A DNA stretch of 64,000 nucleotides from Candidatus Doudnabacteria bacterium (GTDB taxonomy: Bacteria > Patescibacteriota > Doudnabacteria > UBA920): NCBI GenBank assembly GCA_963768175.1, contig CAVYGQ010000001.1, forward strand, positions 840,717 through 904,716, written 5' to 3'. Position 1 is the first letter of the stretch, and each line of letters opens with the position of its first letter. The notes under the pieces were generated by a model that did no database searches, was not told where the DNA came from, and saw only the letters and a program-made list of their open reading frames with translations. Shown in pieces: positions 5,213-37,277 of this stretch. A program made the translations under genes and the position numbers.

Positions 5213-6199
5213 TTATAGCCTGCTAACTATTTTTGCCACGTTTCCATACATAATGCCGTAAATTTCATCATCCGTTAGTCCTGCTATTTCCGAGAGCTGT
5301 TCCGCAATAACCGACAGTTTTCCAATCTCATCAAACTCTTCAAAGAGATGTTGGGCGTCAAGCCCGCCGAAATCGGTCCCGATTGCCGAATATTCTGTTG
5401 AACCGGTTATATCACCGGCTTGTTTGTATGTTTCTATATAATTTTTGAAAGTTGGGAAAAAAGGATTTGCTGGCGTGAACCCGACCACTCCGCCGCGCTT
5501 GGCGATTTCTTTAAGTAATTCGGGAGTGATTAACCGCTGTTTTTCCGAACCCAGGCCGGTGTGGGTGGTGACAATTTTATTATAGTTTCGTACGCGCTCC
5601 AAAATATCGGCAGTAGTTTTGTGGTTGGCATGGGCGGTGTCTATTATCATTTTCAGCTCAACAAGCCGGTCAATTACTTTTTTTCCAAGGTCGGTCAAGC
5701 CCCTGTTTGGATCGCCTGACGAACCTCCGCCAAGCAGGTTGTCGTGGGAGTAGATTGGCCCAACTGACCTGACGCCGCGCGCATACAATTCGTCAGCTAT
5801 ATCGGGCGCAGTAACAATATCCCCGCCTTCTAAATGCAGGATGATTTGTTCTTGGCTGTAAGGCTGATTTTGCAAGCGTAAGTCTTGCGGTCGTGTAAGT
5901 ACTTTAAAGTCTTCGGTTGATTGGTAGTAATCGATCAACCTATTATATTCGTTGCGCACGCCTGCCAATACAACTTCATTTCCGGTTAAGGCGGCTTGTT
6001 TTATCTCCGTATTTGCCCGGCGGTAGATGGTGGCAAAATGCAAGTCTAGCAGTCTTAAGCCTTCGCGCGGCAATTGTTTGCCTCGTTCTTTGGCATGGGC
6101 AAGTTCGGGGTTGTTTAAAATTTGGCACAGCCAGGGATTGAGCCGGTCTTGGTGGAAATCCGCAGCGCGAAAATTTTTACCTTCCTTGGTGTTTAACAT
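5213..6199 (-). CDS. Membrane-dipeptidase family (peptidase M19-like) protein
   Basis: 328 aa. HLEGGD, VRSVGPIYSHDN, IDTAHANH and GTDFGG resemble M19 metal-ligand and signature motifs. Recognised by eye. Confidence 0.7.
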   Translation of the reverse strand: MLNTKEGKNFRAADFHQDRLNPWLCQILNNPELAHAKERGKQLPREGLRLLDLHFATIYRRANTEIKQAALTGNEVVLAGVRNEYNRLIDYYQSTEDFKVLTRPQDLRLQNQPYSQEQIILHLEGGDIVTAPDIADELYARGVRSVGPIYSHDNLLGGGSSGDPNRGLTDLGKKVIDRLVELKMIIDTAHANHKTTADILERVRNYNKIVTTHTGLGSEKQRLITPELLKEIAKRGGVVGFTPANPFFPTFKNYIETYKQAGDITGSTEYSAIGTDFGGLDAQHLFEEFDEIGKLSVIAEQLSEIAGLTDDEIYGIMYGNVAKIVSRL

Positions 6200-6202
6200 A
6201 AG

Positions 6203-7141
6203 CTATTTGCGGTTAAGGGATCTATAGAAACCTAAAAATAGATTATTTAAATTTTGGCCTTGGAATTTGGCGCTGGCAGTCGCCACGCTTGCCGCGCTAA
6301 AACCCGGGTGTACATCTACTTCTATGAGAAAAAGCTTGTTGCCTTTAATTAGAATATTGGATTGGGAAAAAGTGCGGCAACCAAGCGCTTGGTGGGCGAT
6401 TTTGCTAATCTGTTTGACTTTTTTGATAATTTTGGGATTTAAGTGTGCCGGGAATTCTTTTAAAATCGCAGCCTTTCCATCTTTGATTTTTTTGGAAAGT
6501 AGGTCGCCGAGGACGCCGACCGGATCAAAAATTTTTGGTTCCCGGTTTCCAACAACAAGGCATGTTATTTCATAAGTCTTATTTATGTACTGTTCGGCAA
6601 TCATAGCCGAAACAGTGCCAATGTGCTTGTTGACTATTTTAATGCAGTTTTTTTGGCTTTTTGCAATAAACAATCCTCGGCTGTCAGTGCCGGCAACGTC
6701 TTTAATAATACATGGATAACCAATTCTGCTGACAGCTTTTAGTATAGTAGCCCTGGAATTTGTCCATAAGACTTTATCAATAAAAATGTCTTTTGCTACA
6801 GGTAAATGGCATTGCCGGAAAAAGGTTTTGGATAAAAATTTATTGGTTCCCAGAAAGGTTGCCAACGGCCCGGAGCCAAAGTACGGGATATTATAAAGTT
6901 CCAAAAAAGATTCTATGTCCGCTTCATTGCCCCGGCCATAAGCATTTTTTAAGACCACGCCGACTTGTTTGCGTTTAAAATCCTTTAATAATTCATCTGC
7001 CCCGGTGCGGCCGAAGTCATAAGCCTTAATCCGGAAATTTTTTAACTCGCGCTTCAAATCCAAAAGCTGTCTTTGATTTGCTTGAGCTTGCCCGGGATTG
7101 CCGTAAATAACGACGCCTAATTTTATAAGTTTGTTTTTCAT
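6203..7141 (-). CDS. D-alanine--D-alanine ligase-like ATP-grasp protein (second, divergent paralog)
   Basis: 312 aa. AYGRGNEADIESFLELYNIPYFGSG matches the Ddl pattern HG..GEDG..Q..LE...PY.GS. ATP-grasp core YPCIIKDVAGTDSRGLFIA ... FLIEVDVHPGF. A canonical ddl is at 55654-56853. Confidence 0.7.
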   Translation of the reverse strand: MKNKLIKLGVVIYGNPGQAQANQRQLLDLKRELKNFRIKAYDFGRTGADELLKDFKRKQVGVVLKNAYGRGNEADIESFLELYNIPYFGSGPLATFLGTNKFLSKTFFRQCHLPVAKDIFIDKVLWTNSRATILKAVSRIGYPCIIKDVAGTDSRGLFIAKSQKNCIKIVNKHIGTVSAMIAEQYINKTYEITCLVVGNREPKIFDPVGVLGDLLSKKIKDGKAAILKEFPAHLNPKIIKKVKQISKIAHQALGCRTFSQSNILIKGNKLFLIEVDVHPGFSAASVATASAKFQGQNLNNLFLGFYRSLNRK

Positions 7142-8601
7142 AAATTGTTAAAGGTAATGCTGGCTAAATCGTTGAAATTTATGGTTTTCTCGAGTTTTTT
7201 TGCGGGCGGGATATATTTGGACGAGATATAGTCGTAAATATCGGCGGCGCCGGTTTTAAAGAAGTCGCCATATTTCATACTCACCGCCGCTTCAAGATAC
7301 TTTGGACTTAAAGGCCCGTCACAAAATATATCATGCGCGTATAAAGCCTTAAGCTGTCCGTCAAAGCGCCTGAAAAAAAGCGCCATACCGGCAACCAGCC
7401 CGGAGGTGTCAATGTTTTTAATAAGCGGGATTTCTTCCATAAAGGCGGAATGTTCAAGCGTTTTTAGCCATGCATTTTTAAACAGGCTTAAATAAATTGC
7501 GGACCCGTAGCCGGTTAGCGGACGCACGCCGGAGTAAAAATTTAACATTGAAAAAATCGAAAACAGGCTCGGGTAAATTTCTTTTTCCGCTAGCTTCTCC
7601 ATTATAGAACCCTTGTCCATATGGATTTTAAGATGTTCAAATCTGCTGTCGGCGGGAATCAGATATTCTCCTTGAAGGTACATGCGTAAAGAACGAGGCT
7701 GCCCGGGGTACTTTCTCCAGAAAAAGTGGGTGCCCTTTCCTTCTCTTTCCCGCCAGGTGATTATAATTCCTCGAAAGTTTTCCAGTATTTGATCCCGGAA
7801 AGGCTTATCAAAATAAGCGGCGGTTATAAAATTGTCTTCTTTTAACAGTTCAAGCAGACATTGGGTAGTAAGTTCTTCCTGGGTTATATAGAGCAAGTCC
7901 GGCAAAGTGGGGCGGGAGGCCTCGGGAAACAACAGTGGCCAGGTTTCTTTCACAATGACGGTAATTTGGTCGGCGTAGTCTTTGCATCTGTCAAAATTGA
8001 TTGATGAAATAAAGGTGTTAAAATCTTGTAAGAACTTTTGTTCTCCTTTAGTGAATTCATGCCATTGGTGGCTGATTTTAAGTCTGGCGACAAAATCAAA
8101 ATCTCTTTTTGTAATATAATAAGAGCAATGTTCCCGTTCGGCTACGCTAAAAAGGGGAACGTGCTTTCCATGCAGACAAAAGCCGCTTTTCCCGAAATAA
8201 TTATTGGGGGGCACATCGCCGCTGGAGACGACGATGGTGGCGTCCGCTTTTTCCTTTTGGAAAAATTTATTGACGCTGCTTATAACGTTGGCAGACAATA
8301 AAAACGGGTGGTTTAGTATCTGGTGATGGTCGGCAATATTGAAAGCAAGGGAATTTGCGAAGTTAATTTTTAATTTTTCTTTTGCATTGCCGCCGAACAA
8401 CCCTTCAAATTTACGGGTGATTTTATTTTTTAGCAGCTCCTGCCGTTTAAGGTGTAGAGCCGGAGTTTTAAAATTATATAGCCCGTCCGAAAACTCCCTG
8501 ATGCTTAATGGCATTTCAAAATATTCCCGGTAAAGCGGCGCATAACGGGTAATTTGGGAGATTATTTGGTCGCGCTCTTTTAAAATTTTAGCTATTTCCA
8601 T
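7138..8601 (-). CDS. Hypothetical protein, 487 aa, no family recognised
   Basis: Long uninterrupted ORF. Its stop overlaps the start of the ATP-grasp gene by 4 nt (ATGA), implying translational coupling. Confidence 0.7.
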   Translation of the reverse strand: MEIAKILKERDQIISQITRYAPLYREYFEMPLSIREFSDGLYNFKTPALHLKRQELLKNKITRKFEGLFGGNAKEKLKINFANSLAFNIADHHQILNHPFLLSANVISSVNKFFQKEKADATIVVSSGDVPPNNYFGKSGFCLHGKHVPLFSVAEREHCSYYITKRDFDFVARLKISHQWHEFTKGEQKFLQDFNTFISSINFDRCKDYADQITVIVKETWPLLFPEASRPTLPDLLYITQEELTTQCLLELLKEDNFITAAYFDKPFRDQILENFRGIIITWREREGKGTHFFWRKYPGQPRSLRMYLQGEYLIPADSRFEHLKIHMDKGSIMEKLAEKEIYPSLFSIFSMLNFYSGVRPLTGYGSAIYLSLFKNAWLKTLEHSAFMEEIPLIKNIDTSGLVAGMALFFRRFDGQLKALYAHDIFCDGPLSPKYLEAAVSMKYGDFFKTGAADIYDYISSKYIPPAKKLEKTINFNDLASITFNNL

Positions 8602-8681
8602 AGGTATTTAAACTTTACTCCAATTCAAAAAATCCCGCCAGAATACGGTAAAATGCCAAAATTGTGTTTTAAAGTAATATT

Positions 8682-9434
8682 TTATTTTGTTTCCGCCTTA
8701 TCCCACATATACCAAAACCATTTACGATAGCTGTCGGCCAAATCCTTACTGTGCAAAATAAAGAATACAACATTATCAGAAAGCCTAAATAGTTCCAGGC
8801 CGGTGTAGGTAACTACATAGTCGCCAAAGACATGAAAAATGGAATTTGTGGAATATTCTTTTGGCAGAAAACGATATTTTAAAAGTCCCGGCCAGGTTTT
8901 GGCAAAATCTGGCGCCTGGGTTTTGATTTCATGATCAAATAATTGGTGAAATTTAATTTTTTTCCTGGCGGCTTCTTTAAAAAACGCCTGCCTGCTGGCT
9001 TCCAGTTTCGGTTCAAACCAGCCGCCTTTGGCCCCTACAACAAAATTTTCCTCACCAACGCGCAAAACATCCCGCCAAAGATTTTTTTGCCCTTCCAAGC
9101 CCCGATAAATATAGGCTTCTTCCGGGGCAATGCGACGGGTGAATTTCTTTTTTAAATCAGGAAGTATTTTTCCTAGGCTGGTTTGTTTTTCCGCCAGTAA
9201 TTCCGTCAGCTTGTCTGGGTCAACTGCATTGTAGAGATTTTCCGAAGATGAAAAAATCTCAAAGACTAAGCCTTTGTCTATAAGCCGGGCAATGGCATCA
9301 TAGGCATTGCGGCGGTGAATTTTGGCACTAACAGCTATCTTGCTAATACCCGCTTCCCCTGTTTCCACAAGGGATTCGTAAATTTTGGCTTCATTTGGCG
9401 AAAGCCCTAAGCTTAGGAATAAATCTTGGTTCAT
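8682..9434 (-). CDS. TrmB-like winged-HTH transcriptional regulator (paralog 1)
   Basis: 250 aa. N-terminus LGLSPNEAKIYESLVETGEAGISKIAVSAKIHRRNAYDAIARLIDKGLV is typical of the TrmB HTH. Confidence 0.75.
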   Translation of the reverse strand: MNQDLFLSLGLSPNEAKIYESLVETGEAGISKIAVSAKIHRRNAYDAIARLIDKGLVFEIFSSSENLYNAVDPDKLTELLAEKQTSLGKILPDLKKKFTRRIAPEEAYIYRGLEGQKNLWRDVLRVGEENFVVGAKGGWFEPKLEASRQAFFKEAARKKIKFHQLFDHEIKTQAPDFAKTWPGLLKYRFLPKEYSTNSIFHVFGDYVVTYTGLELFRLSDNVVFFILHSKDLADSYRKWFWYMWDKAETK

Positions 9435-9570
9435 ATAATGTGGTGATGATTGCTACCATGTGGCGCTATTGGCCACTCAATATAGATAATATATGCTTAT
9501 CTGTCAACCGTCAACCCCGCCGCTCGCGAGCGGCGGGTCAAGAAACGGCTCTGATAGAAGGAGGAATACA

Positions 9571-9894
9571 ATGCTTGATCAAGAGTTGAAGAGTTCTGCG
9601 ATTGCCCAAAACCCTCTCTTGGAACCGATGCTCGGGCGGAGTTCGTATACCTGCACGATTTTCGTGATTGATCTCCTTGGGGGGAAATCGGATAACTTTA
9701 GGATTTCAGACGAAGTTCTGGAGCAAATTCGAAAGAGGGTGGAGGGGGCGGAGGATGCGACCTACTACATCATCCACTTCATCCCCAGAGACTTTGAAGT
9801 TAGTAGTCTTGAGGACTTGCCTGAGTCCGAGAAAAAGAAGGTTCGCGAAGCGCTTAACCAAGCACCCTTTCCTGTTTGTATCGTTTGGGTTTAG
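9571..9894 (+). CDS. Hypothetical protein (107 aa), GC-rich islet A
   Basis: ATG at 9571 is preceded by GAAGGAGG (9557-9564). The track ORF 9493-9894 is the same frame with a longer start. No family recognised. Confidence 0.55.
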   Translation: MLDQELKSSAIAQNPLLEPMLGRSSYTCTIFVIDLLGGKSDNFRISDEVLEQIRKRVEGAEDATYYIIHFIPRDFEVSSLEDLPESEKKKVREALNQAPFPVCIVWV

Positions 9895-9967
9895 GCTAAC
9901 TATCGTGTGAGGTCGCTAGTACGAGCGAAGCTTGGGCGAGCTAGTGGGAGATTAAGAAAGGGGTAAT

Positions 9968-10552
9968 ATGAAAGCGGTACTGTTTTTGGCCATTTGTCTC
10001 ACCATCCCCGCTTCGGCCCAGGACTGGCAGACGCGGGACAGCCTGCACGTGCAGGCGGACGTCAGCAAAAATTGGTTCGTCTCCGGCTGGTCGGTGACCA
10101 ACCTGCGGACCGAAACCCCCAACAACACCAACCTGTTCGCAGGCGCAGGCTACCGCGGCAAAAACTGGTGGCTGGAGGCCATAGTACAGCACCAGTGGAA
10201 CACTAAGGCTAACCAGTGGATGCTGGACTTCCGGTTCAACAAGCAGACCGAACGGTGGCGCTTGTATGCCGAGGTCTCGCCTTTTCTGATCAAGAAGGCC
10301 TTCTACGAGTACGTTATTGTAGAACGGCGGACTTGGAAAGGCTTCTCGTTCGGCGCGGAGACCGAGAACACGCACCAGATTGGGCCGGACATGATCGCAA
10401 TAGGCCCTAGGGTTAGTCGCAAGCTCGGCCGGTTTGCTGGCTTTGATGCATCGGCCGCTATTGCGGTTCGGCTTAGCCCTGTCGGTGGGCATACTGAACC
10501 GCGGTTGTCCCTGACGTTCAACCGCCGGCTTTATTTGAGAGACCGCAAGTAG
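9968..10552 (+). CDS. Secreted beta-rich (outer-membrane beta-barrel-like) hypothetical protein, GC-rich islet A
   Basis: 194 aa. Signal peptide MKAVLFLAICLTIPASA-QD. Alternating aromatic/polar strands (WFVSGWSVTNL, WWLEAIVQHQW, WMLDFRF, RLSLTFN). SD AAAGGGG lies upstream. The overlapping minus ORF 9941-10492 is judged a high-GC artefact. Confidence 0.6.
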   Translation: MKAVLFLAICLTIPASAQDWQTRDSLHVQADVSKNWFVSGWSVTNLRTETPNNTNLFAGAGYRGKNWWLEAIVQHQWNTKANQWMLDFRFNKQTERWRLYAEVSPFLIKKAFYEYVIVERRTWKGFSFGAETENTHQIGPDMIAIGPRVSRKLGRFAGFDASAAIAVRLSPVGGHTEPRLSLTFNRRLYLRDRK

Positions 10553-10572
10553 CGCGCGGTCTCTCTTTTTTA
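10537..10572 (+). terminator. Rho-independent terminator
   Basis: GAGAGACCGC aagtagcgc GCGGTCTCTC followed by TTTTTT. Confidence 0.7.
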
Positions 10573-10622
10573 TTTGTTTTTATGCTATAATAAGCAGTAT
10601 ATTATTAAAACAAAAAATTACT

Positions 10623-11357
10623 ATGCAAGATAAGTTTGGCGGAAAAGAACCAAAGTATTACGATATTTTTACTGGTTTGTTTGTGGCAATATTGCTGATT
10701 TCAGAAATTACCTCTACAAAAATTGTGTCTTTGGGGTTTATCCAAACAGCAGGCGCCGCGGTGCTGTTCCCTATCTCTTACATTTTTAGCGATATTTTAA
10801 CCGAAGTTTACGGCTACGCCAGAGCCAGGCGCGTCATGTGGATCGGCTTTGCGTCTTTGGTATTGCTTTCAGCAATCTTAATTATTGTCCAGTATCTGCC
10901 GCCGGCGCCCTCCTGGCACAACCAGGCCGCTTACGACGTGATTTTGGGTGTTGTGCCCAGAATTTCCTTTGCCAGCGTGATAGCTTATTGGGCCGGCGGT
11001 TTTGCCAACGATTTAGTCTTGGCCAAAATGAAGCTTTTGACCAAGGGCAAATATTTGTGGACGCGCACCGTGGGCTCCACCGTGGTTGGCCAGGCCGTGG
11101 ACACTTTTTTGTTCCTTAGCATCGCGTTTTATGGTACCTTGCCCAACGCGGTTATTTTACAAATTATCTTCAGCTTTTATTTGTTTAAGTGCGGTTATGA
11201 AGTCGTAGCCACCCCGATTACTTATTTTGTGGTCAATAAATTAAAAAAGGCCGAAGGCCTGGATGTGTTTGATTACCATACCAATTTCAACCCTTTCAAG
11301 TTCAAGGTTGAAAATTCGGTAGACCAAGGGGCATCCTTGGACCCGGAACAATCTTAG
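10623..11357 (+). CDS. yhhQ: Queuosine-precursor transporter (YhhQ/VUT, DUF165 family)
   Basis: 244 aa multi-TM protein. FPISYIFSDILTEVYGYARARRVMW is the conserved family motif. Confidence 0.8.
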   Translation: MQDKFGGKEPKYYDIFTGLFVAILLISEITSTKIVSLGFIQTAGAAVLFPISYIFSDILTEVYGYARARRVMWIGFASLVLLSAILIIVQYLPPAPSWHNQAAYDVILGVVPRISFASVIAYWAGGFANDLVLAKMKLLTKGKYLWTRTVGSTVVGQAVDTFLFLSIAFYGTLPNAVILQIIFSFYLFKCGYEVVATPITYFVVNKLKKAEGLDVFDYHTNFNPFKFKVENSVDQGASLDPEQS

Positions 11358-11377
11358 ACCAAGGATGCCCCTTGGTA

Positions 11378-12154
11378 CTATTGGTGTTTCAAAAACGGTT
11401 TTAATATTGGCGCGTATAAATCTTTTTTCGGCGGAATAACCAATTTGTGATATAAATCCTTTTTGGTAAACTTAACAAATTTCGCCCCTCTTAGCACCAC
11501 CACCGGCGTTTGCTCGCCGCCTTCGCCCATTATCAGCGCTCCCAAGTCCGCCAGCGTGTCCACCAAATTGCGCTGGGTGTATTTTAATTTGCGTTTAAAA
11601 ATATCTTTTTGTCCGCGGTAATCAAACAGTGGCTTTAACCCCCAAAAGCCGATGCTTACCCCTTGCGTTCCCCATCTTAGCGGCGTGGTGCGGCTGTCCA
11701 CGGCCACGGCCGCCAGTTTTTTTGTGCCAAATTTTGTTTGGTATCTTTTGACAATTTGTTTAAGTAATAAATTAACATTCTTCGGCCAAAGAATAAAATA
11801 ACCATTGCCGTTGCTTTCATCTATGCCGGCCGAAGGTATAAGCGTGTAGTCTTTAATGGTCAAAATAATTTCCGAATCGCCAATCATGTAAGCCGGCAAG
11901 CTAAAATCGGCTTCTTTTTTTACAAGCTGGTGTTTTTGGTTGTAGCGTGCCGATTTATCCGCCGTCGCTGAAGCTTTGGCGGACAAGTCGGCCTTCTCGA
12001 TTTTCACGCATCTGCCCTGATGAATCGCCAAAATCTTGGAAGCAATCAACAAAACATCGCCTTCTTTAAGCTTAGGCAGGCGTTTGTCCAGCTCTTGCAA
12101 AATGTCGTCCTTTGGCGGCAGGAACTTGCGGGTTTTTATGGGAATGAATTGCAT
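11378..12154 (-). CDS. CofE-like gamma-glutamyl ligase family protein (F420-0:gamma-glutamyl ligase / folate-type)
   Basis: 258 aa. MQFIPIKTRKFLPPKDDIL...GDVLLIASKILAIHQGR N-terminus resembles the CofE family. Contains an in-frame palindromic insert (SAKASATADKSARY). Confidence 0.6.
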   Translation of the reverse strand: MQFIPIKTRKFLPPKDDILQELDKRLPKLKEGDVLLIASKILAIHQGRCVKIEKADLSAKASATADKSARYNQKHQLVKKEADFSLPAYMIGDSEIILTIKDYTLIPSAGIDESNGNGYFILWPKNVNLLLKQIVKRYQTKFGTKKLAAVAVDSRTTPLRWGTQGVSIGFWGLKPLFDYRGQKDIFKRKLKYTQRNLVDTLADLGALIMGEGGEQTPVVVLRGAKFVKFTKKDLYHKLVIPPKKDLYAPILKPFLKHQ

Positions 12155-12254
12155 AGAAGTAGTGTATCAAAAAAAATAACCCCTGGTAAGGAGGGTTTGA
12201 CAAGATAAAGAGAACCATATAAAATGTTAATACTTAGTATTAATTTAAGTTATT

Positions 12255-12518
12255 ATGAGAAATACTTCCTTAGTCACCATATCTTTGCCGCCGGCCATGG
12301 TCAGGGAATCCGATAGTAGGGCAAAAAGCAGGCAGATGACCCGGTCGGAACTTGTCCGTGCGGCCTTGCGCGAGTATTTGGAGCGCTACGGCGCCAAAAG
12401 AATCGCCTGGGAAGAACAGGACACCCTGAAAGCCATTCGGTCCTATGGGCGGGCAAAAAAACAGGGAAAACTAAAAATTTTAAGGTCCGGCGATTTAGCA
12501 AAATGGGCAAGAGAATAA
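12255..12518 (+). CDS. Ribbon-helix-helix (CopG-like) antitoxin
   Basis: 87 aa. TISLPPAMVRESD...RSELVRAALREYL is an RHH pattern. Sits 4 nt upstream of a RelE-like ORF. Confidence 0.7.
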   Translation: MRNTSLVTISLPPAMVRESDSRAKSRQMTRSELVRAALREYLERYGAKRIAWEEQDTLKAIRSYGRAKKQGKLKILRSGDLAKWARE

Positions 12519-12522
12519 TCAA

Positions 12523-12789
12523 ATGAAAATCGCCAAAATCAATTATACCCCCTATTTCAAAAGGGCTTATAAAAGGTTGCCTTCGGAAATTAAAACGATT
12601 TTTTCGGAAAGAGAAAAAATGTTCCGTGAAAATTGTTTTGACCCGAAGCTCAAAACGCATAAGCTTTCAGGAAGGTTGGCGGGTTGTTGGTCGTTTTCCC
12701 TTGATTATTCTTACCGGGTCCTGTTTGTGTTTGTTAGTGGTGGCGGAGCGGACTTTTTAAACGTCGGCGATCATTCTATATATCAATAA
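12523..12789 (+). CDS. RelE/ParE-superfamily type II toxin
   Basis: 88 aa. FKRAYKRLP...KLKTHKLSG.L.G.WSFSL.YSYRVLF is typical of the RelE/YafQ-like family. Confidence 0.7.
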   Translation: MKIAKINYTPYFKRAYKRLPSEIKTIFSEREKMFRENCFDPKLKTHKLSGRLAGCWSFSLDYSYRVLFVFVSGGGADFLNVGDHSIYQ

Positions 12790-27061: not shown

Positions 27062-27364
27062 TTAAATAAATTTTGGCCCCAACCTTAAGATATTTTCAAA
27101 ATTGTCTTCCGGAGCTATTTTGTTTTTCTTTTTTTGGCCGCACTTTTGGCATTGGTGGACTAAAATGTAATCGCCGGATTTTATTTCTACAGCTACGGGC
27201 TTCATCATCCCCCCACAGGCTTCGGCGCGATCCCCCGGATTAACATCTATATGTTTGCTCCACAGGCAATTCGGGCAGTGGTTGGTATAACCCGTGCCTT
27301 TTATCTTTGCGCCGCAATGCTCGCAGACAAAATCTTCAATTGTCCTGGTGAATTTTTTGGACAT
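27062..27364 (-). CDS. RNHCP domain-containing protein
   Basis: 100 aa. FVCEHCG...GYTNHCPNCLWSKHID is the RNHCP signature. Confidence 0.75.
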   Translation of the reverse strand: MSKKFTRTIEDFVCEHCGAKIKGTGYTNHCPNCLWSKHIDVNPGDRAEACGGMMKPVAVEIKSGDYILVHQCQKCGQKKKNKIAPEDNFENILRLGPKFI

Positions 27365-27496
27365 AATAGGCTAATTATAGCTTAAAATAAATCAAGGGGC
27401 ACGTCATCAATCCTTTCGGACGAATCAGTGTCCCCTTGGGTTGTTTTGGCCTTTTAGCGGTTCCTCCTCGTGCCGCTTTTAAGCCGGTGGTGTTGT

Positions 27497-28132
27497 TCAG
27501 GCCGTTGGGAACAAGTAGGCCAAGATCTCATCGTGGGTAGCTTGGCCAATCTTCCCTGCCGACAGGTATAGTCCTAGCAGTTCTGATATCCGCCAAGCTA
27601 CGTAGCCTTTATAGTTCGCATTGGCGAGCTCGGCCATGCCGCCCTGCTCCCGGTCCACGAGCATGAAGATACCCGCGACATGGAGACGTTCGGCTTCTAA
27701 CACCTTAATGGACGCCAGTTTGGAATCCGCTTTGGTGATCAGGTCATCGAAGAGAGCCACGCGCTGGCCAGGCTGGTAAGCGCCGTCAATGTTGGCGCCA
27801 GAGCCGTGTGTCTTCATCTCTCGTGGAGTGATCATTGGTATCGTGGTAAAACTGGAGATTAGCGTAACCAGCGGAGTGGCGGCGGTCGGTACGTCGGCAA
27901 CCAAGTCACAGGTCACGCCTTCCATCATTTCTGTTAGGAGCCATGCGGTGTCCACCAGCAGCGTTGGAAACGAGCGGAGCAGGCGGAAGTTCAGGTAGAA
28001 TGGTGAGAGCGGGGCGTCGGGGTTTTTTTCGTGTAACTTGAGACGAAACCCTTTGCCTTGAGGCGACCTGGACTTGTCCAGGAAGATGCCGGCGTCAAAC
28101 CACGCCAGCGCGAGAGTTTCTTTGTCGATCAT
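27497..28132 (-). CDS. Orotate phosphoribosyltransferase-like PRTase, GC-rich islet C (second copy)
   Basis: From ATG 28132: MIDKETLALAWFDAGIFL...KLHEKNPDAPLSPFYLNFR...VALFDDLITKADS (PRPP-binding motif). The track ORF start at 28222 overlaps the upstream gene and is rejected. Confidence 0.7.
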   Translation of the reverse strand: MIDKETLALAWFDAGIFLDKSRSPQGKGFRLKLHEKNPDAPLSPFYLNFRLLRSFPTLLVDTAWLLTEMMEGVTCDLVADVPTAATPLVTLISSFTTIPMITPREMKTHGSGANIDGAYQPGQRVALFDDLITKADSKLASIKVLEAERLHVAGIFMLVDREQGGMAELANANYKGYVAWRISELLGLYLSAGKIGQATHDEILAYLFPTA

Positions 28133-28136
28133 GGTG

Positions 28137-28937
28137 TTAGTCCTGGCAGGCCTCGATGATGTTGTCGATGATGAGCTCCACCGCCGCCAGAGGATCCTGG
28201 GCGGCAGTAATGTCGCGGCCAACTACAATGCCGTTAGCGCCGCCGCTGATGGAGTTTCCTGGCGTTGCCACTGCCTTCTGCTCTTGCTTTGCGGAGCCAG
28301 GCAGTCGGACGCCAGGGGTGTAAATCAGGAAGTCCGGCCCGCAGGCTTCGCGGATAGCGGCGACTTCCAAAGGTGAGGCGATGACACCGTCGCAGCCGCA
28401 TTCCTGGGCCAGCTTGGCGTATCGAACAACGAGCTTGAGCCGATATGGCTCCTCGACCCCTTCTGGTTTCAGGCCAAGATCCACCAGGTCTTCCTCGCCG
28501 AGGGTGGTCAAGAGAGTTACGGCCAGCAGGAGAGGCTTGCGTTGCAGGTCGAGCTTAGCGGCGGTGGTGTCGATGGCTTCGCGGGCGGCTTTCATAGCCG
28601 CCTTGCCGGCAAAGGCGTGCATGTTGAACATAAGCGGTCGGAGACGGGTCAGGGCTGTTGCCGCGCCCTTGACCGTATTGCCTATATCGGCGAGTTTGCA
28701 GTCCATGAAGTCGGTGCCGACAAGCTCGCCAAACAGGTCCCGCAGGTCCTCGAGCGCCGTAAGCGCATCATCGTAGTCGGCGGTCACCAGAGTGGTAAAC
28801 ACCGAAAGTATGAACTCAAAGCCGATCTTGAACCCGCGCACCTTGCCTTTCAGCATGGTGACGAGCCCTGTGGCTTTGATCACATTGTCTACATCCAAGG
28901 CCACGATAATCCGTGACCCCGCGTCTTTTCGAGTCAT
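28137..28937 (-). CDS. Orotidine-5'-phosphate decarboxylase-like protein, GC-rich islet C (second copy)
   Basis: 266 aa. RIIVALDV, FKIGFEF and DCKLADIGNTV are OMPdecase family motifs. Confidence 0.75.
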   Translation of the reverse strand: MTRKDAGSRIIVALDVDNVIKATGLVTMLKGKVRGFKIGFEFILSVFTTLVTADYDDALTALEDLRDLFGELVGTDFMDCKLADIGNTVKGAATALTRLRPLMFNMHAFAGKAAMKAAREAIDTTAAKLDLQRKPLLLAVTLLTTLGEEDLVDLGLKPEGVEEPYRLKLVVRYAKLAQECGCDGVIASPLEVAAIREACGPDFLIYTPGVRLPGSAKQEQKAVATPGNSISGGANGIVVGRDITAAQDPLAAVELIIDNIIEACQD

Positions 28938-29113
28938 TGTCTAGTCCTTTCACGTGAAATGAAAAGAAGACCCCACTATACAGCTAATTGGGCCTCCTTT
29001 TGCTTGTGGACGGAGTATACCAAAAGGAAAGCTTAAAATCAAGGCTTTTTTAATGGTGAATTTTCCAAAAATTTGATATGATAAAAGCAGCCCAAAATTA
29101 AAAATTATCAAAA

Positions 29114-30004
29114 ATGAGCTCCGCATCCAAGGTAACCTTAGTGTCCCCGAATTTTTCCGATATCTTTACCCCAAATATTGAAATTGGCCAGTTTCCGGAC
29201 GGTGACAGCCACGTGCGCATCCCATTGATTGCGGAGTGCAAAGATGCCGATGTAGTGGTTTTTCACAGGCTTTACCCCAACCAGAACAGCTTACTGGTGA
29301 GCCTGCTTTTTATTTTGGACTCATTAAAAGAAGTTGGAGCAAAACATATAAGCGTGGTAGCGCCGTATTTGCCGTATTCCCGCCAGGATAAAAAAAAGCT
29401 CAACGGCGAAGTGGCAAGCGCGTACGTGGTTTGCAACATGCTTGCCCGGGCCGGCTGCGGCAAGCTGGTGGCGTTTGACTGCCATTTTTTAAATAATGAA
29501 GGTCCGGCGGAGTTTAACGGTTTGAAAATTCAAAACATATCCATGGGCAAGGCTTTGGTGGAGTACGCCAAGACAGCCGCGTTTTTGGGCGAGGACTGCG
29601 AGGTGATTTCGCCGGATATGGGCGCAAACTATTTGGTTAAAGACCTTGGGGGCAAGTCTTATAAAAAATCCAGGAAAGAATATGACGGTGAAAAAATTAA
29701 TTATCGCGACGTGGAAACCATGGACGGCGACTTTGACGTTAAGGGGAAAAACGTCTTGCTTTTGGACGATATGATAAGCACTGGCGCCACCATGCTCCGG
29801 GCTTTGGAAAAATTAACGGCTAGTGGAGCAAAGAAAATCTGCTGCGCCGCCACCCATGGGTTGTTCTTATACAATTGCGTGGATAAAATCAAAAAGTTTA
29901 CGGATTGTGTTTATTCCACGGATACGATTATTAACGACAACGCCAAAGTTTCCATCAAAGAAAAGTTGGCGGACATTGGTAGCAACCAGCCGACGTTATT
30001 TTAA
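29114..30004 (+). CDS. prs: Ribose-phosphate pyrophosphokinase
   Basis: 296 aa. FPDGDSHVRI, APYLPYSRQDKK and VLLLDDMISTGATM motifs. Confidence 0.85.
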   Translation: MSSASKVTLVSPNFSDIFTPNIEIGQFPDGDSHVRIPLIAECKDADVVVFHRLYPNQNSLLVSLLFILDSLKEVGAKHISVVAPYLPYSRQDKKKLNGEVASAYVVCNMLARAGCGKLVAFDCHFLNNEGPAEFNGLKIQNISMGKALVEYAKTAAFLGEDCEVISPDMGANYLVKDLGGKSYKKSRKEYDGEKINYRDVETMDGDFDVKGKNVLLLDDMISTGATMLRALEKLTASGAKKICCAATHGLFLYNCVDKIKKFTDCVYSTDTIINDNAKVSIKEKLADIGSNQPTLF

Positions 30005-30020
30005 ACCTATCGGCCAAATT

Positions 30021-30647
30021 ATGGAAAATATTCTGGATATCTTAAAAAAATCCGGGGCGATACTAGACGGCCATTTTGTTTTGACGTCCGGCAAGCACGC
30101 CAACGCTTATTTGAATAAAGACGCGCTTTATCCGCACATTCAAGATACCTCGGATGTCTGCAGGATGTTTGCCGAAAAAGTAAAAAATTTGGATATTGAT
30201 ACGGTTGTCGGCCCGGCTTTGGGGGGAATTATCCTTTCCACTTGGACGGCGCATCACCTTTCTAAATTTAAGGGCAAAGAGGTATTTGGCGTTTATACGC
30301 AAAAAGCCGCTGACGGCAGCATGCAATTTGCCAGGGGCTACGATAAATTTGTTGCCGGTAAAAAGGTTTTGGTGGTTGAGGACTTAACTTCTACCGGCGG
30401 GAGCGCGAAAAAAGTCGTGGATGCCGTAAAGGCCATTGGCGGCATGGTGGTTGGGGTTTGCGTTATGGTTAACCGCAATCCCAAAGAGGTGACCGCGGAT
30501 TATTTTGGCGTGCCGTTTTTTCCGCTCGGTACTTTTGAAGTTGAGGCTCATGAGCAAGTCGATTGTCCCATGTGCAAAGCCGGTGTACCGATAAATACAG
30601 AAGTCGGGCATGGGAAAGAGTATTTGGAAGCTAAAGGGTTGTTATAA
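30021..30647 (+). CDS. pyrE: Orotate phosphoribosyltransferase (native low-GC copy)
   Basis: ATG at 30021: MENILDILKKSGAILDGHFVLTSGKHANAYLNK ... VLVVEDLTSTGGS. The track ORF 29823 start overlaps prs. Confidence 0.85.
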   Translation: MENILDILKKSGAILDGHFVLTSGKHANAYLNKDALYPHIQDTSDVCRMFAEKVKNLDIDTVVGPALGGIILSTWTAHHLSKFKGKEVFGVYTQKAADGSMQFARGYDKFVAGKKVLVVEDLTSTGGSAKKVVDAVKAIGGMVVGVCVMVNRNPKEVTADYFGVPFFPLGTFEVEAHEQVDCPMCKAGVPINTEVGHGKEYLEAKGLL

Positions 30648-30659
30648 TTTTGCAACTTT

Positions 30660-31358
30660 ATGCTGACGGAAACAAAAGTTATCTTATCGGCCGATGGTTA
30701 CGATAAAGAGGGATTGCTTGGACTTGTGGAAAAAATCGGCAAGAAAGTTTATTGTGTGAAAATCCATAATTTGTATGACCGGTATGGGCCGCAAATTGTA
30801 AATGATTTGCGCAGAGCAGGGGCGCGAAAAGTTTGGGTGGACGTAAAATTACACGATATCCCCAATACGGTTAAATTGAGGGCGCGAGCCTTAGCCGAAT
30901 CCGGCTGTGAGATTATTACGGTGCACGCTTCGGGCGGTATGGAGATGATGCGGGCGGCCAAAGAAGGTTTTAATAAAGGCAAGGTTTTTGCCGTAACAGC
31001 GCTGACCTCCCTGAACAACGAGGCTATTAAGATTATTTATGGCGCCCAAGATGCCAAAGAATTGGTCATGCGTTTGGCGCTTTTGGTTAAAATGTCGGGG
31101 GTGGACGGTTTGGTATGTTCTCCGCAAGAAGTCCCGGCATTGCGCGCAGTTCCCGATTATAATGATTTAGAGCTGGTTGTACCGGGCATCCGCTCGGCAG
31201 GGGTCGGTGTGGATGACCAAAAGCGTTTTGATACCCCTTCAAATGCCTTAAGAGCCGGAGCGAATTTTTTAGTAATCGGCAGGCAAATAACTAAAGCCCC
31301 CAATCCGGTGGAGGCCGTAGATGCGTTGGAGTCTGAAATTGCGCAAGCCGTAAAATAA
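30660..31358 (+). CDS. pyrF: Orotidine-5'-phosphate decarboxylase (native low-GC copy)
   Basis: 232 aa. VILSADG, CVKIHNLY, DVKLHDIPNTV and ITVHASGG motifs. Confidence 0.85.
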   Translation: MLTETKVILSADGYDKEGLLGLVEKIGKKVYCVKIHNLYDRYGPQIVNDLRRAGARKVWVDVKLHDIPNTVKLRARALAESGCEIITVHASGGMEMMRAAKEGFNKGKVFAVTALTSLNNEAIKIIYGAQDAKELVMRLALLVKMSGVDGLVCSPQEVPALRAVPDYNDLELVVPGIRSAGVGVDDQKRFDTPSNALRAGANFLVIGRQITKAPNPVEAVDALESEIAQAVK

Positions 31359-31364
31359 TGGTAA

Positions 31365-32435
31365 ATGTATAAATTATTTAGGCCGTTAATCTTTAAAGCT
31401 TCGTCCGATCCCGAAGACATACACAGGGTGGTGATGGGGCTTTTGCATATGGTTGGCAGCATTAGTCCACTTGGCTGGGCGGAGCGGCGGGTTTTTGATT
31501 TTGCCGACAAAAGGCTGGCACAAAACCTTTTTGGTTTGAATTTTAAAAATCCGGTCGGTCTGGCTGGAGGTTTTGATAAGCATGGGGAAGCCATTTTAGG
31601 CTTGGCCAATGTAGGTTTTGGGTTTTTGGAAATCGGCACGGTCACACGTTTTGGTCAGCCGGGCAACCCCAGGCCGCGCATTTTTAGATTACAAAAAGAT
31701 GAAGCCTTAATTAACCGTATGGGTTTTAACAACGAAGGCGCGGATTTTTTGGCAAGCAAATTGTCAAAAACAAAAAAATTAACAATTCCGCTGGGCATTA
31801 ATTTGGGTAAGTCTAAAGTTACCGAACTGGCCAATGCGGCGGAAGATTATTTGTATTCCTTTTCCAAACTTTACGATTATGGCGATTATTTTGTGGTTAA
31901 TATTAGCTCGCCCAATACCTCGGGGCTGCGGCAGTTGCACGAAAAAAGTTTTTTGGTTGATATTTTGTCGGGTTTGAACGGTTACAGATTAAGGCAGCCG
32001 GTAATAAAACCGGTCTTGGTAAAAACCGTTGTGGACTTGTCTTTGGAGGCAATTGACGAGGCATTGGAAGTTTGCAAAAACCAAAATGTTGACGGTATAA
32101 TTATTAGCAACACTTCAATTGGTAGGGATGGCTTCAAAATTAAAACCGATGAAACAGGAGGTTTAAGCGGCAAGCCGATAAGACAGAAATCTACTGATTA
32201 TATAAAATATATTCATCGGCAGGCTCCAGGCCTTCCAATTGTAGGTGTTGGTGGAATTTTTAGTGCGGAAGATGCTTACGAAAAAATTAAAGCGGGAGCA
32301 TCGCTTGCCCAAATTTATACCGGATTGATTTACGAAGGCCCGGGAGTGGTAAAAAAAATAAACCAGGGTTTGGTAAAATTGCTTGAGCGCGACGGGTTTA
32401 AAAATATTGGTGAAGCGGTTGGGAAAGGAAACTAA
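31365..32435 (+). CDS. pyrD: Dihydroorotate dehydrogenase (quinone), class 2
   Basis: 356 aa. GLNFKNPVGLAGGFDK, GFGFLEIGTVT..GQPGNPRPRIFRL and IVGVGGI motifs. Confidence 0.9.
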   Translation: MYKLFRPLIFKASSDPEDIHRVVMGLLHMVGSISPLGWAERRVFDFADKRLAQNLFGLNFKNPVGLAGGFDKHGEAILGLANVGFGFLEIGTVTRFGQPGNPRPRIFRLQKDEALINRMGFNNEGADFLASKLSKTKKLTIPLGINLGKSKVTELANAAEDYLYSFSKLYDYGDYFVVNISSPNTSGLRQLHEKSFLVDILSGLNGYRLRQPVIKPVLVKTVVDLSLEAIDEALEVCKNQNVDGIIISNTSIGRDGFKIKTDETGGLSGKPIRQKSTDYIKYIHRQAPGLPIVGVGGIFSAEDAYEKIKAGASLAQIYTGLIYEGPGVVKKINQGLVKLLERDGFKNIGEAVGKGN

Positions 32436-32618: not shown

Positions 32619-32705
32619 GCCCAGGTGGTGGAACTGGTATACACGTAGGCTTGAGGTGCTTATGGGAGCAATCCCGTGCGGGTTCGAGTCCCGCCCTGGG
32701 CACCA
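32619..32705 (+). tRNA. tRNA-Leu (GAG), CCA encoded
   Basis: Acceptor GCCCAGG/CCTGGGC, anticodon arm TAGGC TTGAGGT GCTTA, long variable arm, T arm GCGGG TTCGAGT CCCGC. ORFs 32580-32879(-) and 32611-32850(+) overlap it and are spurious. Confidence 0.9.
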
Positions 32706-33476: not shown

Positions 33477-34058
33477 ATGCTCAATATCCCCGTAATTTTA
33501 GGTTCGGTGCGCGAGGGCCGCAAGAGCGAGGCGCCAGCTAAATATATAGTGGAAAAAATCAAAACCGCCGGATACCAAACCCAGCTGGTTGATTTTAAAG
33601 AGCTGCCTTTGCCGTTTTATGACGCTAAGGCTGTGCCGGTGGTATATTTTAAATCGCAATATCCCAATGCCAATGCCCAAAAGTGGAGCCAGATTGCCCG
33701 GGCGGCGGACGCTTTTGTTATTGTTTCTCCGGAATACAATCACGGTTACTCGGCGGTTTTAAAAAATGCGCTGGATTGGGGCTATTTGGAGTTTGAGAAA
33801 AAACCGTTTGGTTTGGTCGGGGTTTCTAATGGAACGGTCGGAGGGGCGCGGATGATTGAAAGCCTGCGTCTGGTGGTTGCGAATTTTGGTGCGGTGACTA
33901 CGCAGGAAACCATTATGATCGGCCCGGTACAAAGCTACTTTGCCGATGACGGGGAAATGATAAATCCCGAACTGGACAAAAGAATCGACGGCCTGCTAAA
34001 AAGTTTAACCTGGTGGGCCGAGGCTTTGAAAGATCACAGATACGCAGATAAAAAATAA
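33477..34058 (+). CDS. NADPH-dependent FMN reductase family protein
   Basis: 193 aa. ILGSVREGRKS...FVIVSPEYNHGYSAVLKNALDW is the typical motif. Confidence 0.8.
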   Translation: MLNIPVILGSVREGRKSEAPAKYIVEKIKTAGYQTQLVDFKELPLPFYDAKAVPVVYFKSQYPNANAQKWSQIARAADAFVIVSPEYNHGYSAVLKNALDWGYLEFEKKPFGLVGVSNGTVGGARMIESLRLVVANFGAVTTQETIMIGPVQSYFADDGEMINPELDKRIDGLLKSLTWWAEALKDHRYADKK

Positions 34059-36482: not shown

Positions 36483-36632
36483 AAAGTATCGGTAAAACCG
36501 ACGATATTTTAATTACAATATAACCTTATTTTAAAGGATATTTTTAATATTGTCAATAATATATATCAAGATTATTGATATATTTAACAAATTAGTGTAT
36601 AGTGTTTGGTCAACCTTAAGGAGGGTTGGGTT

Positions 36633-37277
36633 ATGAGAATATTAGTCGTTGACGACGAGCCCATCAATTTGCTCGCCGCGCAGCAGACTTTGGTTGGGCA
36701 CGAGTTAGTGCTCGTTGACGGTTACGATAAGGCAACGGTACTTTTGGAGCCGGCCGCATACGAAGAAGAGATCACAAAACTCCAGGGAGGGGAAGGCCAC
36801 CGCATTAGCTACCGGCAAGTGCAAGAGATGTTACGCAAGTCTACCAAAGTGTTTGATGCCGTCTTAACTGACCTGCTCATGCCCCCAGGCAAGAGGGGGC
36901 AATCACCGCGGTCTCGCGAAACGTTCCAGAACCTCCCATTTCCTTCGGGGGTGATGCTCGCCCTGCACGCGATCCGGCAAGGCGCAAAGTATGTCGCTGT
37001 GTTCACAAGCGGGATCAACCATCACCACAATCCCGCGGTCTGGATGATGGAGCCGCTCAGGTGGGGCTGGAACGCTACGCCGCAGAAGTTCTTGGTCAAC
37101 GGAGCCATTTTGGGATTCTTTGATGAGTGCGATGGCGGTCGCGTCCCTGTAGATGGCACTGTGTGTCAGGAATGCAATGGCAAAGGTTGCCTAACATATT
37201 GTCATGAAACTGGCAAGCTTTTTGCCAAGAACTGGGGAAGGGTTCTTGAGGAGCTCATCAAGCACCACAACAGCTAG
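36633..37277 (+). CDS. Stand-alone receiver (CheY-like)-related protein with C-terminal zinc knuckle, GC-rich islet D
   Basis: ATG 36633 follows TAAGGAGGG. MRILVVDDEP ... FDAVLTDLLMP ... VAVFTSG follows the REC beta1/beta3/beta4 pattern. C-terminal CQECNGKGC..C. Homologous by eye to 40433-40876. Confidence 0.65.
   Translation: MRILVVDDEPINLLAAQQTLVGHELVLVDGYDKATVLLEPAAYEEEITKLQGGEGHRISYRQVQEMLRKSTKVFDAVLTDLLMPPGKRGQSPRSRETFQNLPFPSGVMLALHAIRQGAKYVAVFTSGINHHHNPAVWMMEPLRWGWNATPQKFLVNGAILGFFDECDGGRVPVDGTVCQECNGKGCLTYCHETGKLFAKNWGRVLEELIKHHNS

Follow-up and report, generated by a model that had tools for sequence, protein, structure and literature searches.

Why should a small genome keep two complete sets of genes for the last two steps of uridine 5'-monophosphate (UMP) synthesis? 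This question is raised by a 64,000-nt stretch of DNA (the window) from contig CAVYGQ010000001.1 of a Candidatus Doudnabacteria bacterium, in which a pair of pyrF-like and pyrE-like genes, rich in guanine plus cytosine (GC), lies beside a prs-pyrE-pyrF-pyrD operon. The genes of the GC-rich module are called pyrF' and pyrE' here, and PyrF1 denotes the PyrF of the operon. A first-pass annotation, made from the sequence alone, had taken the pair to be foreign and had proposed either that it acts on a different substrate or that it is a recent xenolog in the process of displacement. The analysis reported here points to the co-residence of exchangeable xenologous pyrimidine cassettes, the operon (type A) and the module (type B), at one tRNA-bounded site, and we consider this the probable explanation. 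Two unrelated gene sets for the last UMP steps would then be present because alternative cassettes, carried one at a time elsewhere, sit side by side.

Two gene sets that are not duplicates

The ORFs (open reading frames), sequence motifs and GC content agree on an intact pyrF'-pyrE' pair that runs back to back with the low-GC operon, as had been described. The stop codon of pyrF' (28137-28139) and the ATG of pyrE' (28132) are separated by 4 nt. This ATG agrees with the starts of homologues; a longer, TTG-initiated ORF extends to 28222. The translations of the pair contain IIVALDV, FKIGFEF, DCKLADIGNTV and VALFDDLITKADS. Among the 52 long ORFs of the window, pyrF' is the most GC-rich (GC 0.596; GC at third codon positions, GC3, 0.715; z = 3.6) and pyrE' the third most GC-rich (GC 0.560, GC3 0.675, z = 2.9). 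The mean GC of the window is 0.44, and the operon is host-like at 0.42-0.48.

The two sets are adjacent and share the same predicted activities, as a recent in-lineage duplication with later divergence would produce. However, PyrF' and PyrF1 are only 30-33% identical, and PyrE' and the PyrE of the operon share no BLAST similarity. The two PyrE proteins belong to different subfamilies of orotate phosphoribosyltransferase (OPRT), PyrE' to that of UMP synthase (UMPS) and the operon PyrE to the Thermus type. For each copy, other genomes contain much closer relatives (64-67% identity for PyrF', 85% for PyrE' in locus L002 and 75% for PyrF1). The copies are not each other's closest relatives, and the low or absent mutual similarity together with the closer outside relatives refutes an in-lineage duplication, which we regard as ruled out for practical purposes. 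The earlier claim of two full copies of these steps thus holds in the form of two full, non-duplicate sets.

The doubling could also be an assembly artefact, if reads of two co-occurring strains with alternative cassettes had been joined. Populations with alternative cassettes do share samples (L170 and L176 in JGI 3300014839, L171 and L175 in ERZ27248448), and an identical 4.3-kb operon block is found in two contexts, L174 and L175. However, a separately assembled Logan contig (L001, run ERR10755942) repeats the order RNHCP-pyrE'-pyrF'-prs-pyrE-pyrF-pyrD at 99.98% identity, with one mismatch in 4,972 nt. There is no shared repeat at which an assembler could have set the cassettes in tandem, and the contig is 949 kb long. 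An artefact is very improbable on these grounds.

Alternative cassettes in a variable slot

The locus was compared with about 15 related Doudnabacteria-like loci. These were gathered from contigs encoding relatives of PyrF', PyrE', PyrD and PyrF1, and by searches with an FMN-reductase alignment, which gave six useful loci in a genome scan and at least two related loci in a metagenome scan. A shared frame of tRNA-Val, RNHCP, the slot, tRNA-Leu(GAG), FMN_red, DHH and RBFA was found in every related locus as far as its contig extends, and RNHCP flanks the slot in every related locus that has this side on its contig.

Five slot states were seen. Type A, the prs-pyrE-pyrF-pyrD operon at host GC, occupies the slot in L005, L006, L007, L008, L009 and L175. 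Type B consists of a GC-rich pyrF' with a phosphoribosyltransferase (PRTase) gene; it is accompanied by pyrC and sometimes pyrD in L002/3 and L004, stands as the pair alone in L168/9, is joined by prs in L170/1, and has its pyrF' split into two ORFs in L010. The slot is empty in L011 and L088, where 46-56 nt lead from RNHCP to tRNA-Leu. A further state, found in L012 (genome GC 0.61), combines pyrC of the dimer type with a radical-SAM-like gene and upp; at this locus, pyrimidine salvage takes the place of the orotate route. The window alone carries A and B together.

The slot types do not follow the history of the flanking genes. The types are interleaved in a neighbour-joining tree built from the concatenated flanks: L002 (type B) groups with L006 and L007 (type A; 85% bootstrap), and L011 (empty) groups with L009 (type A; 100%).

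In the interpretation that we favour, the GC-rich pair would be a self-contained transcription unit of two genes with its own promoter, leader hairpin and terminator. PyrE' would convert orotate and phosphoribosyl pyrophosphate (PRPP) to orotidine 5'-monophosphate (OMP), and PyrF' would convert OMP to UMP. The slot would hold alternative, non-orthologous cassettes (A, B, or pyrC with upp) or nothing, and related lineages would exchange whole cassettes as well as single genes, the probable mechanism being recombination via the conserved flanks. The window, because A and B are both present, would represent the co-resident, intermediate state of such a xenologous replacement, and we infer that its redundancy is transitional rather than adaptive.

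A stable functional specialisation is the main competitor of this account. The module and the operon could supply OPRT and OMP decarboxylase (OMPDC) activity under different conditions, for example at differing levels of uridine triphosphate (UTP) or orotate, or in the salvage of host-derived orotate as opposed to flux from dihydroorotate via PyrD. Both sets are intact and retain all catalytic residues, six loci conserve the leader of the module, which has no counterpart in the operon, and pyrE' is under purifying selection, with a ratio of nonsynonymous to synonymous substitution rates (dN/dS) of 0.17. The slot of L168/9, which has the pair only, would fit a stand-alone route from orotate to UMP. 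Nevertheless, no other sampled locus keeps both sets, and the dN/dS value spans the whole path to L002 rather than the period of co-residence. We hold specialisation to be rather unlikely, though worth keeping in mind.

In four relatives (L004 9185-9835, L005 5236-5889, L008 2581-3228 and L009 4617-5264), free-standing LAGLIDADG-like ORFs with a GC of 0.30-0.34 are found on the slot side of tRNA-Leu(GAG), at a distance of 6-11 nt. Similar ORFs in L002 (14637-15278 and 20039-20653) occupy other inter-tRNA spacers, and none is present in the window. Such enzymes could promote recombination at the slot. A serine-recombinase gene beside the slot was considered on account of a weak 'Zn_ribbon_recom' match in L171, L174 and L175. 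The match was not relied on, because the ORF partly overlaps tRNA-Leu in antisense and matches tRNA regions in many loci. In L012, the slot (5988-9913) includes an inverted tRNA-Leu(GAG), and its radical-SAM-like ORF has 496 aa.

Probable exchange of cassettes and single genes

Divergence within the locus is uneven. Between the window and L002, dS is 0.52 for pyrE', 1.30 for pyrF', 1.19 for DHH and more than 3 for FMN_red, the flanks ranging overall from about 1.2 to more than 3. At the pyrF'/pyrE' junction, DNA identity between the two loci rises abruptly from 47-77% to 78-90%. By these values pyrE' is younger than its flanks. The PyrF' of the window, in turn, is equidistant (64-66%) from all sampled copies, and no closer relative was found among 5.8 billion clusters. 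The flanks set L168 apart (DHH 63-65%), yet the PyrF' of L004 has its nearest relative there (74%). RNHCP shows the same grouping, the L004 and L168 proteins being 72% identical compared with 54-59% for the others. At least five very different PRTases occur as partners of pyrF'.

The operon is mosaic as well. Its Prs is 80-85% identical to those of L006, L007 and L170, its PyrE is 82% identical to the L006 copy, and the relatives of its PyrD form a dense gradient from 80 to 50% identity in which the named ones are Patescibacteria down to about 55%. The pyrF gene of the operon, however, is of type 1 in the window, whereas L005-L009 have pyrF_sub2 (TIGR02127) at this position; L175 shares the type-1 gene. 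A tblastn search with PyrF1 found no match at the pyrF position of L005, L006 and L007. Its relatives amount to a single cluster at 50% identity among 1.84 billion representatives, with the next matches at 51% or less, and its only close relative, P0361 (75%), lies in the same operon in L175. The type-1 gene in place of pyrF_sub2 and the single cluster of relatives point to an in-place replacement of pyrF within the operon. The type A operon of L007 has a different pyrE.

These comparisons modify the distinction between a foreign pair and a native operon on which the first-pass annotation rested. The pair is indeed atypical in GC and has a history unlike that of its flanks. It is no exotic import confined to this genome, as its closest relatives lie at the same syntenic position in related Doudnabacteria-like genomes and are GC-rich too. 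The operon is host-like in GC but mosaic, its pyrF differing in type from that of the relatives except L175. Displacement in progress is a fair description at the level of the clade, because relatives carry A or B in one slot and the window carries both; either cassette may have arrived second in this lineage.

A separate observation concerns L174 and L175. The two share, at 99.95% identity, a block of 4.3 kb (8297-12616 in both) that comprises prs-pyrE-pyrF-pyrD, tRNA-Leu and a truncated ORF. Upstream of it, one contig has ribosomal S12-S7-EF-G and toxin genes, and the other has RNHCP. The block is either mobile or part of a chimeric contig.

Predicted activities of the GC-rich pair

PyrF' is most likely an enzyme that converts OMP to UMP, judging from its family matches and its residues. 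It scores above threshold with PF00215 (2.4e-40, 139.2 bits, cut-off 27) and TIGR01740 (135.9 bits, cut-off 92.3), and slightly below the equivalog cut-off with NF001273 (181.9 bits, cut-off 193). In an alignment of 15 diverse OMPDCs, the strand-1 Asp (D15), the strand-2 Lys (K37) and the motif D79-x-K81-x-x-D84 are invariant, as are the ring and phosphate ligands T144, Q220 and G240-R241, which align with those of 1dbt and 3tr2. Sequence matches in the PDB include 3tr2, 1dbt and 1eix at about 1e-30, the best being bacterial type-1 enzymes. PyrF' shares the D-x-K-x-x-D motif, Asp, Lys, Gln and Arg with the type-1 PyrF of B. subtilis (1DBT), E. coli (1EIX) and Coxiella (3TR2). It is about 30 aa longer than these owing to two insertions specific to its clade, one following strand 2 and the other near residues 148-165, and it reads DIGNTV where many bacterial type-1 OMPDCs read DIPNTV.

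The second protein, PyrE', is more divergent. No Pfam model, PF00156 included, matched it at E <= 0.01. Its NCBIfam matches are all OPRT models and all below threshold (score/cut-off: NF010382 74.2/208, TIGR00336 71.1/106.8, NF004034 66.9/656). The match to NF004034/PRK05500, a fused pyrF-pyrE family which we take to be cyanobacterial, covers the C-terminal half of that family. By sequence, its closest PDB entries are 3qw4 (6.8e-21), the OPRT domain of the UMP synthase from Leishmania, and 2wns (4.2e-20), human UMPS. An AlphaFold (AF2) model of PyrE', built on 61 family members, reached a mean confidence (pLDDT) of 95.3. In a Foldseek search of the PDB with this model, ranks 1-38 were all OPRT or OPRT-type phosphoribosyltransferase entries. 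The top match was human 2WNS (E 2e-18, TM 0.84/0.89, root-mean-square deviation 2.1 Å).

Residues of PyrE' that align with catalytic or ligand positions of OPRT are K32, F45-Y46, K107, H109, D129-D130, T133 and R161. Their counterparts in E. coli PyrE are K26, F34/F35, K103, H105, D124-D125, T128 and R156. K107, H109, K32, F45-Y46 and R161 are invariant or nearly so in the family, and ADVPTAATP, DDLITxADSK and LVDREQGG are further signatures of the family. An alignment of both pairs with characterised enzymes had been suggested earlier as a check. In this comparison the OMP ligands are all kept in PyrF', and the orotate-contacting positions are kept in PyrE'.

UMPS-type enzymes offer the closest comparison. 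The human UMPS OPRT domain (2WNS) and the OMPDC-OPRT of Leishmania donovani (3QW4) are the best matches of PyrE' in both sequence and structure. PyrE' shares with UMPS-type OPRTs the Lys and His of the catalytic loop, the DD pair and the Arg that binds orotate. The OMPDC-OPRT domain order of UMPS-type fusions is mirrored by the order pyrF then pyrE, with a spacing of 4 nt or an overlap. However, PyrE' and PyrF' are encoded separately, whereas human and Leishmania UMPS and NF004034/PRK05500 are fused. The 5-phosphate loops differ too, TxA[D/E/H]SK in PyrE' corresponding to STGET or TSGSS in the UMPS-type and fused enzymes.

The subfamily of PyrE' is large, with at least 975 clusters at 90% identity below E = 1e-3. 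Its members are named OPRT or UMP synthase in JGI, and several NCBI records read 'hypothetical protein'. The gene is found as pyrF'-pyrE' in the window and L002, as pyrD-pyrF-pyrE' in L172/3 and as pyrE'-pyrD in L180/1, and a Pyrinomonadaceae contig (L178/9) has an overlapping pyrF-pyrE' pair at a local GC of 0.54-0.55. Between the window and L002, pyrE' has a dN of 0.087 with the dS given above; the resulting ratio indicates purifying selection. PyrE' most likely converts orotate and PRPP to OMP, as its residues and modelled fold suggest. The pair is most likely a working OPRT and OMPDC because residues, fold, neighbouring pyr genes and dN/dS all point in this direction.

Some neighbourhoods of pyrE' relatives deserve mention in their own right. 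On L178/L179 (1-12630) the pyrF-pyrE' pair lies among genes for HipA, a DNA methylase, HNH and MZB-domain proteins, and these contigs also encode a 1,145-aa HTH_17 protein with a weakly mad1-like N-terminus. A role in defence, prompted by the HipA, methylase and HNH neighbours in Pyrinomonadaceae, was rejected when PADLOC returned no match for the two proteins or for a PRTase partner. Inside the pyrimidine cassettes of L002 (11785-12471, minus strand, 228 aa, GC 0.56) and L180 (9314-9853, 179 aa, GC 0.53) there are unannotated ORFs of about module GC with no Pfam or NCBIfam match, which may be accessory proteins or decayed pyr genes.

Anatomy of the module

The module carries signals of its own (Table 1). 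The candidate promoter was found by a consensus scan, and equivalent hexamers lie upstream of pyrF' in other module-bearing loci. Downstream of pyrE', the 126-nt region of the terminator-like hairpin has a minimum free energy of -38.2 kcal/mol (z = -4.06), and no shuffled sequence was as stable.

Table 1 Positions of the features discussed (in the window unless a locus is named)
Feature	Position	Strand	Description
RNHCP-domain gene	27062..27364	-	PF12647 at 1.5e-31; conserved left boundary of the variable slot
13-nt direct repeat, left copy	27379..27391	+	AGCTTAAAATAAA; brackets the module
Intrinsic-terminator-like hairpin and U-rich tail	27379..27438 (hairpin 27393-27438)	-	downstream of pyrE'
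pyrE'	27497..28132	-	211 aa from ATG; divergent UMPS-type OPRT-like protein
pyrF'	28137..28937	-	266 aa; type-1 OMPDC with clade-specific insertions
pyrF' 5' leader	28938..29012	-	about 75 nt; hairpin P1, U-rich tail, dyad over ribosome-binding site
Leader homologues	L002 9920-10012, L004 9920-10012, L168 9923-10012, L170 2834-2931, L010 8814-8900 (-)		
Sigma-70-like promoter	29014..29042	-	TTGATT, 17 nt, TATACT; TG before second hexamer
13-nt direct repeat, right copy	29030..29042	+	AGCTTAAAATCAA; overlaps the -35 hexamer of the module
prs	29114..30004	+	ribose-phosphate diphosphokinase; TIGR01251 185 bits
pyrE	30021..30647	+	Thermus-type OPRT; TIGR01367 155.9 bits (cut-off 150.25)
pyrF (PyrF1)	30660..31358	+	type-1 OMPDC; NF001273 206.9 bits (cut-off 193)
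pyrD	31365..32435	+	class-2 quinone-dependent dihydroorotate dehydrogenase; NF003652 438.9 bits
tRNA-Leu(GAG)	32619..32705	+	ARAGORN; conserved right boundary of the variable slot
FMN-reductase-like gene	33477..34058	+	syntenic anchor; 55-79% identical in related loci

The leader of pyrF' is kept in all six module-bearing loci (the window, L002, L004, L168, L170 and L010). In its P1 hairpin, the Shine-Dalgarno-like AAAGGAGGCC pairs with GGUCUUCUUUU, and a dyad (UUUCACGUGAAA, TTTCACGTGAAA) overlaps the ribosome-binding site of pyrF'. The centre of the dyad varies and yet stays palindromic, reading CACGTG, CACGCGTG, CACATGTG or TCGCGA. RNAalifold, applied to the small sample of six leaders, gave ten consensus pairs, two of them with compensatory changes, and folds of the single sequences agree with this consensus (z -1.9 to -2.9). 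A short open frame that follows the Shine-Dalgarno-like AAAGGAGG runs through the hairpin. Only L002 and L170 have a Shine-Dalgarno sequence followed by ATG, the other loci having ATT or ATA in its place, and in two loci the frame reads into pyrF'. A covariance model (R1) run over 615 kb of related loci found no leader beyond the six training sites, and Rfam, searched at gathering thresholds and in a permissive E-value scan, gave chance-level matches only for the leader and module.

UTP-sensitive leader attenuation controls pyrBI and pyrE in E. coli. The pyrF' leader likewise combines a promoter-proximal hairpin, a U-rich 3' arm and tail, a Shine-Dalgarno-like box and a short frame. By this analogy it may be a pyrimidine-responsive attenuator. 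It has no sequence similarity to the E. coli leaders, and its frame begins with ATG in only two of six loci.

The pattern of the 13-nt direct repeat, AGCTTAAAATMAA, occurs twice in the 64 kb (0.04 expected), and the two occurrences bracket the module. Homology with the spacer upstream of prs in L171 starts at 29042. This arrangement suggests a type A locus whose RNHCP-prs spacer received the module, 1.64 kb in length. Alternatively, the operon may have been inserted next to tRNA-Leu, since the right repeat is the -35 region and the module keeps the type B position relative to RNHCP. When the empty site was reconstructed by joining the flanks of the module, only the prs-proximal side aligned convincingly with type A spacers, and the insertion may therefore have run in either direction.

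Weighing the interpretation

Several points speak against the co-residence of exchanged cassettes or against parts of it. The sample of related loci is small, and the view of this genome's pyr genes was confined to the 64 kb of the window within a source contig of 949,077 bp. No integrase or transposase was found in the slot of the window. The 13-nt repeat may not be a target-site duplication, because its right copy coincides with the module's own -35 region. The module genes lie 0.10-0.14 above host GC in every sampled lineage, with the same excess in five other hosts. A single old acquisition would not explain this, because the excess appears in every lineage despite dS values above 1 between the copies. 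Finally, PyrE' departs from canonical OPRTs in three places. Its 5-phosphate loop, T-K-A-D-S-K, has Ala in place of a conserved Gly and does not fit the canonical pattern T-[S/T/A]-G-x-[S/T/A]. This form is family-wide (TxA[D/E/H]SK, with A135, S137 and K138 at least 90% conserved in 61 sequences). The family also has a 6-residue hood insertion (LKLHEKxPDAPLSP) after the K26 equivalent, and the flexible loop, PMITPRExKTHG, is one residue shorter, one of the two basic residues of the R99/K100 pair being absent. For these reasons the specificity of PyrE' for orotate and PRPP is likely rather than certain.

The same departures could be read as signs that the pair acts on something other than orotate and OMP, such as a nucleotide analogue or a cofactor precursor, as the first-pass annotation had envisaged. 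Scores below every Pfam and NCBIfam OPRT threshold, the 'hypothetical protein' records, the HipA, methylase and HNH surroundings of the Pyrinomonadaceae pair and the diversity of PRTase partners of pyrF' would agree with this. However, both proteins conserve the positions that contact orotate and OMP, all of the nearest structures are of the OPRT type, relatives are embedded with pyrD and pyrC, and the pair is the only pyrE/pyrF of the slot in L168/9 and L170/1. The PADLOC search was also negative. A different substrate is poorly supported, because the catalytic and ligand-contacting positions are kept and relatives of PyrE' lie in pyr operons; we consider it decidedly improbable.

A bolder combination would make the module a mobile, self-regulated unit around an unrecognised PRTase subfamily whose specificity or regulation is unlike that of classical OPRT, with the leader as a new pyrimidine-responsive attenuator. 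It would be kept beside the classical operon as a distinct route, for instance one that salvages orotate from the host or an analogue of orotate. This reading is speculative, and we give it a low probability.

Other compositional outliers in the window

Two further ORFs of the window may interest those who study its composition. The second strongest GC outlier is an ORF of 194 aa at 9968-10552 (plus strand, GC 0.58, GC3 0.75). It has a signal-peptide-like N-terminus and no Pfam match, appears by eye to be rich in residues that form beta-strands, and is possibly another acquired gene. An ORF of 223 aa at 36606-37277 (plus strand, GC 0.54) has a receiver-domain-like N-terminus (RILVVDDEP) and no Pfam match. 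It lies between a trmB-like gene and infB. This spot looks like a second variable site, because relatives carry different genes there, a PALP enzyme or a metallo-beta-lactamase.

Significance

Members of the Candidate Phyla Radiation (CPR), or Patescibacteria, are thought to depend on their hosts for nucleotides, and the biosynthetic steps that they retain decide what has to be imported. PyrF' is a member and PyrE' a divergent variant of known families, and the process is probably one of xenologous displacement at a tRNA-flanked hot spot. As at island hot spots of this kind, the slot is variable, bounded by a tRNA gene and atypical in GC, and trees of its genes and flanks disagree. It differs from a typical genomic island in that every cassette type belongs to pyrimidine metabolism instead of mixed cargo, that the slot of the window has no integrase or transposase, and that the GC excess is found in every sampled lineage. 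In the literature on OPRT in CPR and on pyrimidine genes in Doudnabacteria, no description of the slot, the PyrE' subfamily or the leader was found.

Horizontal gene transfer in Patescibacteria has been described as involving islands and as being mostly intra-phylum (PMC12455944), and exchange at the slot agrees with this report. Soil Doudnabacteria have been found to lack most genes of nucleotide biosynthesis and to have acquired ubiquinol oxidase operons (PMC8407418).

The comparison also exposes two gaps in annotation. A large OPRT-like subfamily is not caught by the thresholds of Pfam and NCBIfam, and a conserved leader RNA lies upstream of pyrF'. The doubled pyrE and pyrF of the window are real and would stem from cassette exchange; they do not testify to new chemistry. 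At one tRNA-bounded site, the final steps of UMP synthesis appear to behave as interchangeable cassettes, which can be present, absent, replaced by upp or doubled. The locus thus offers a concrete, testable example of how metabolic capacity may be reshuffled among ultra-small bacteria.

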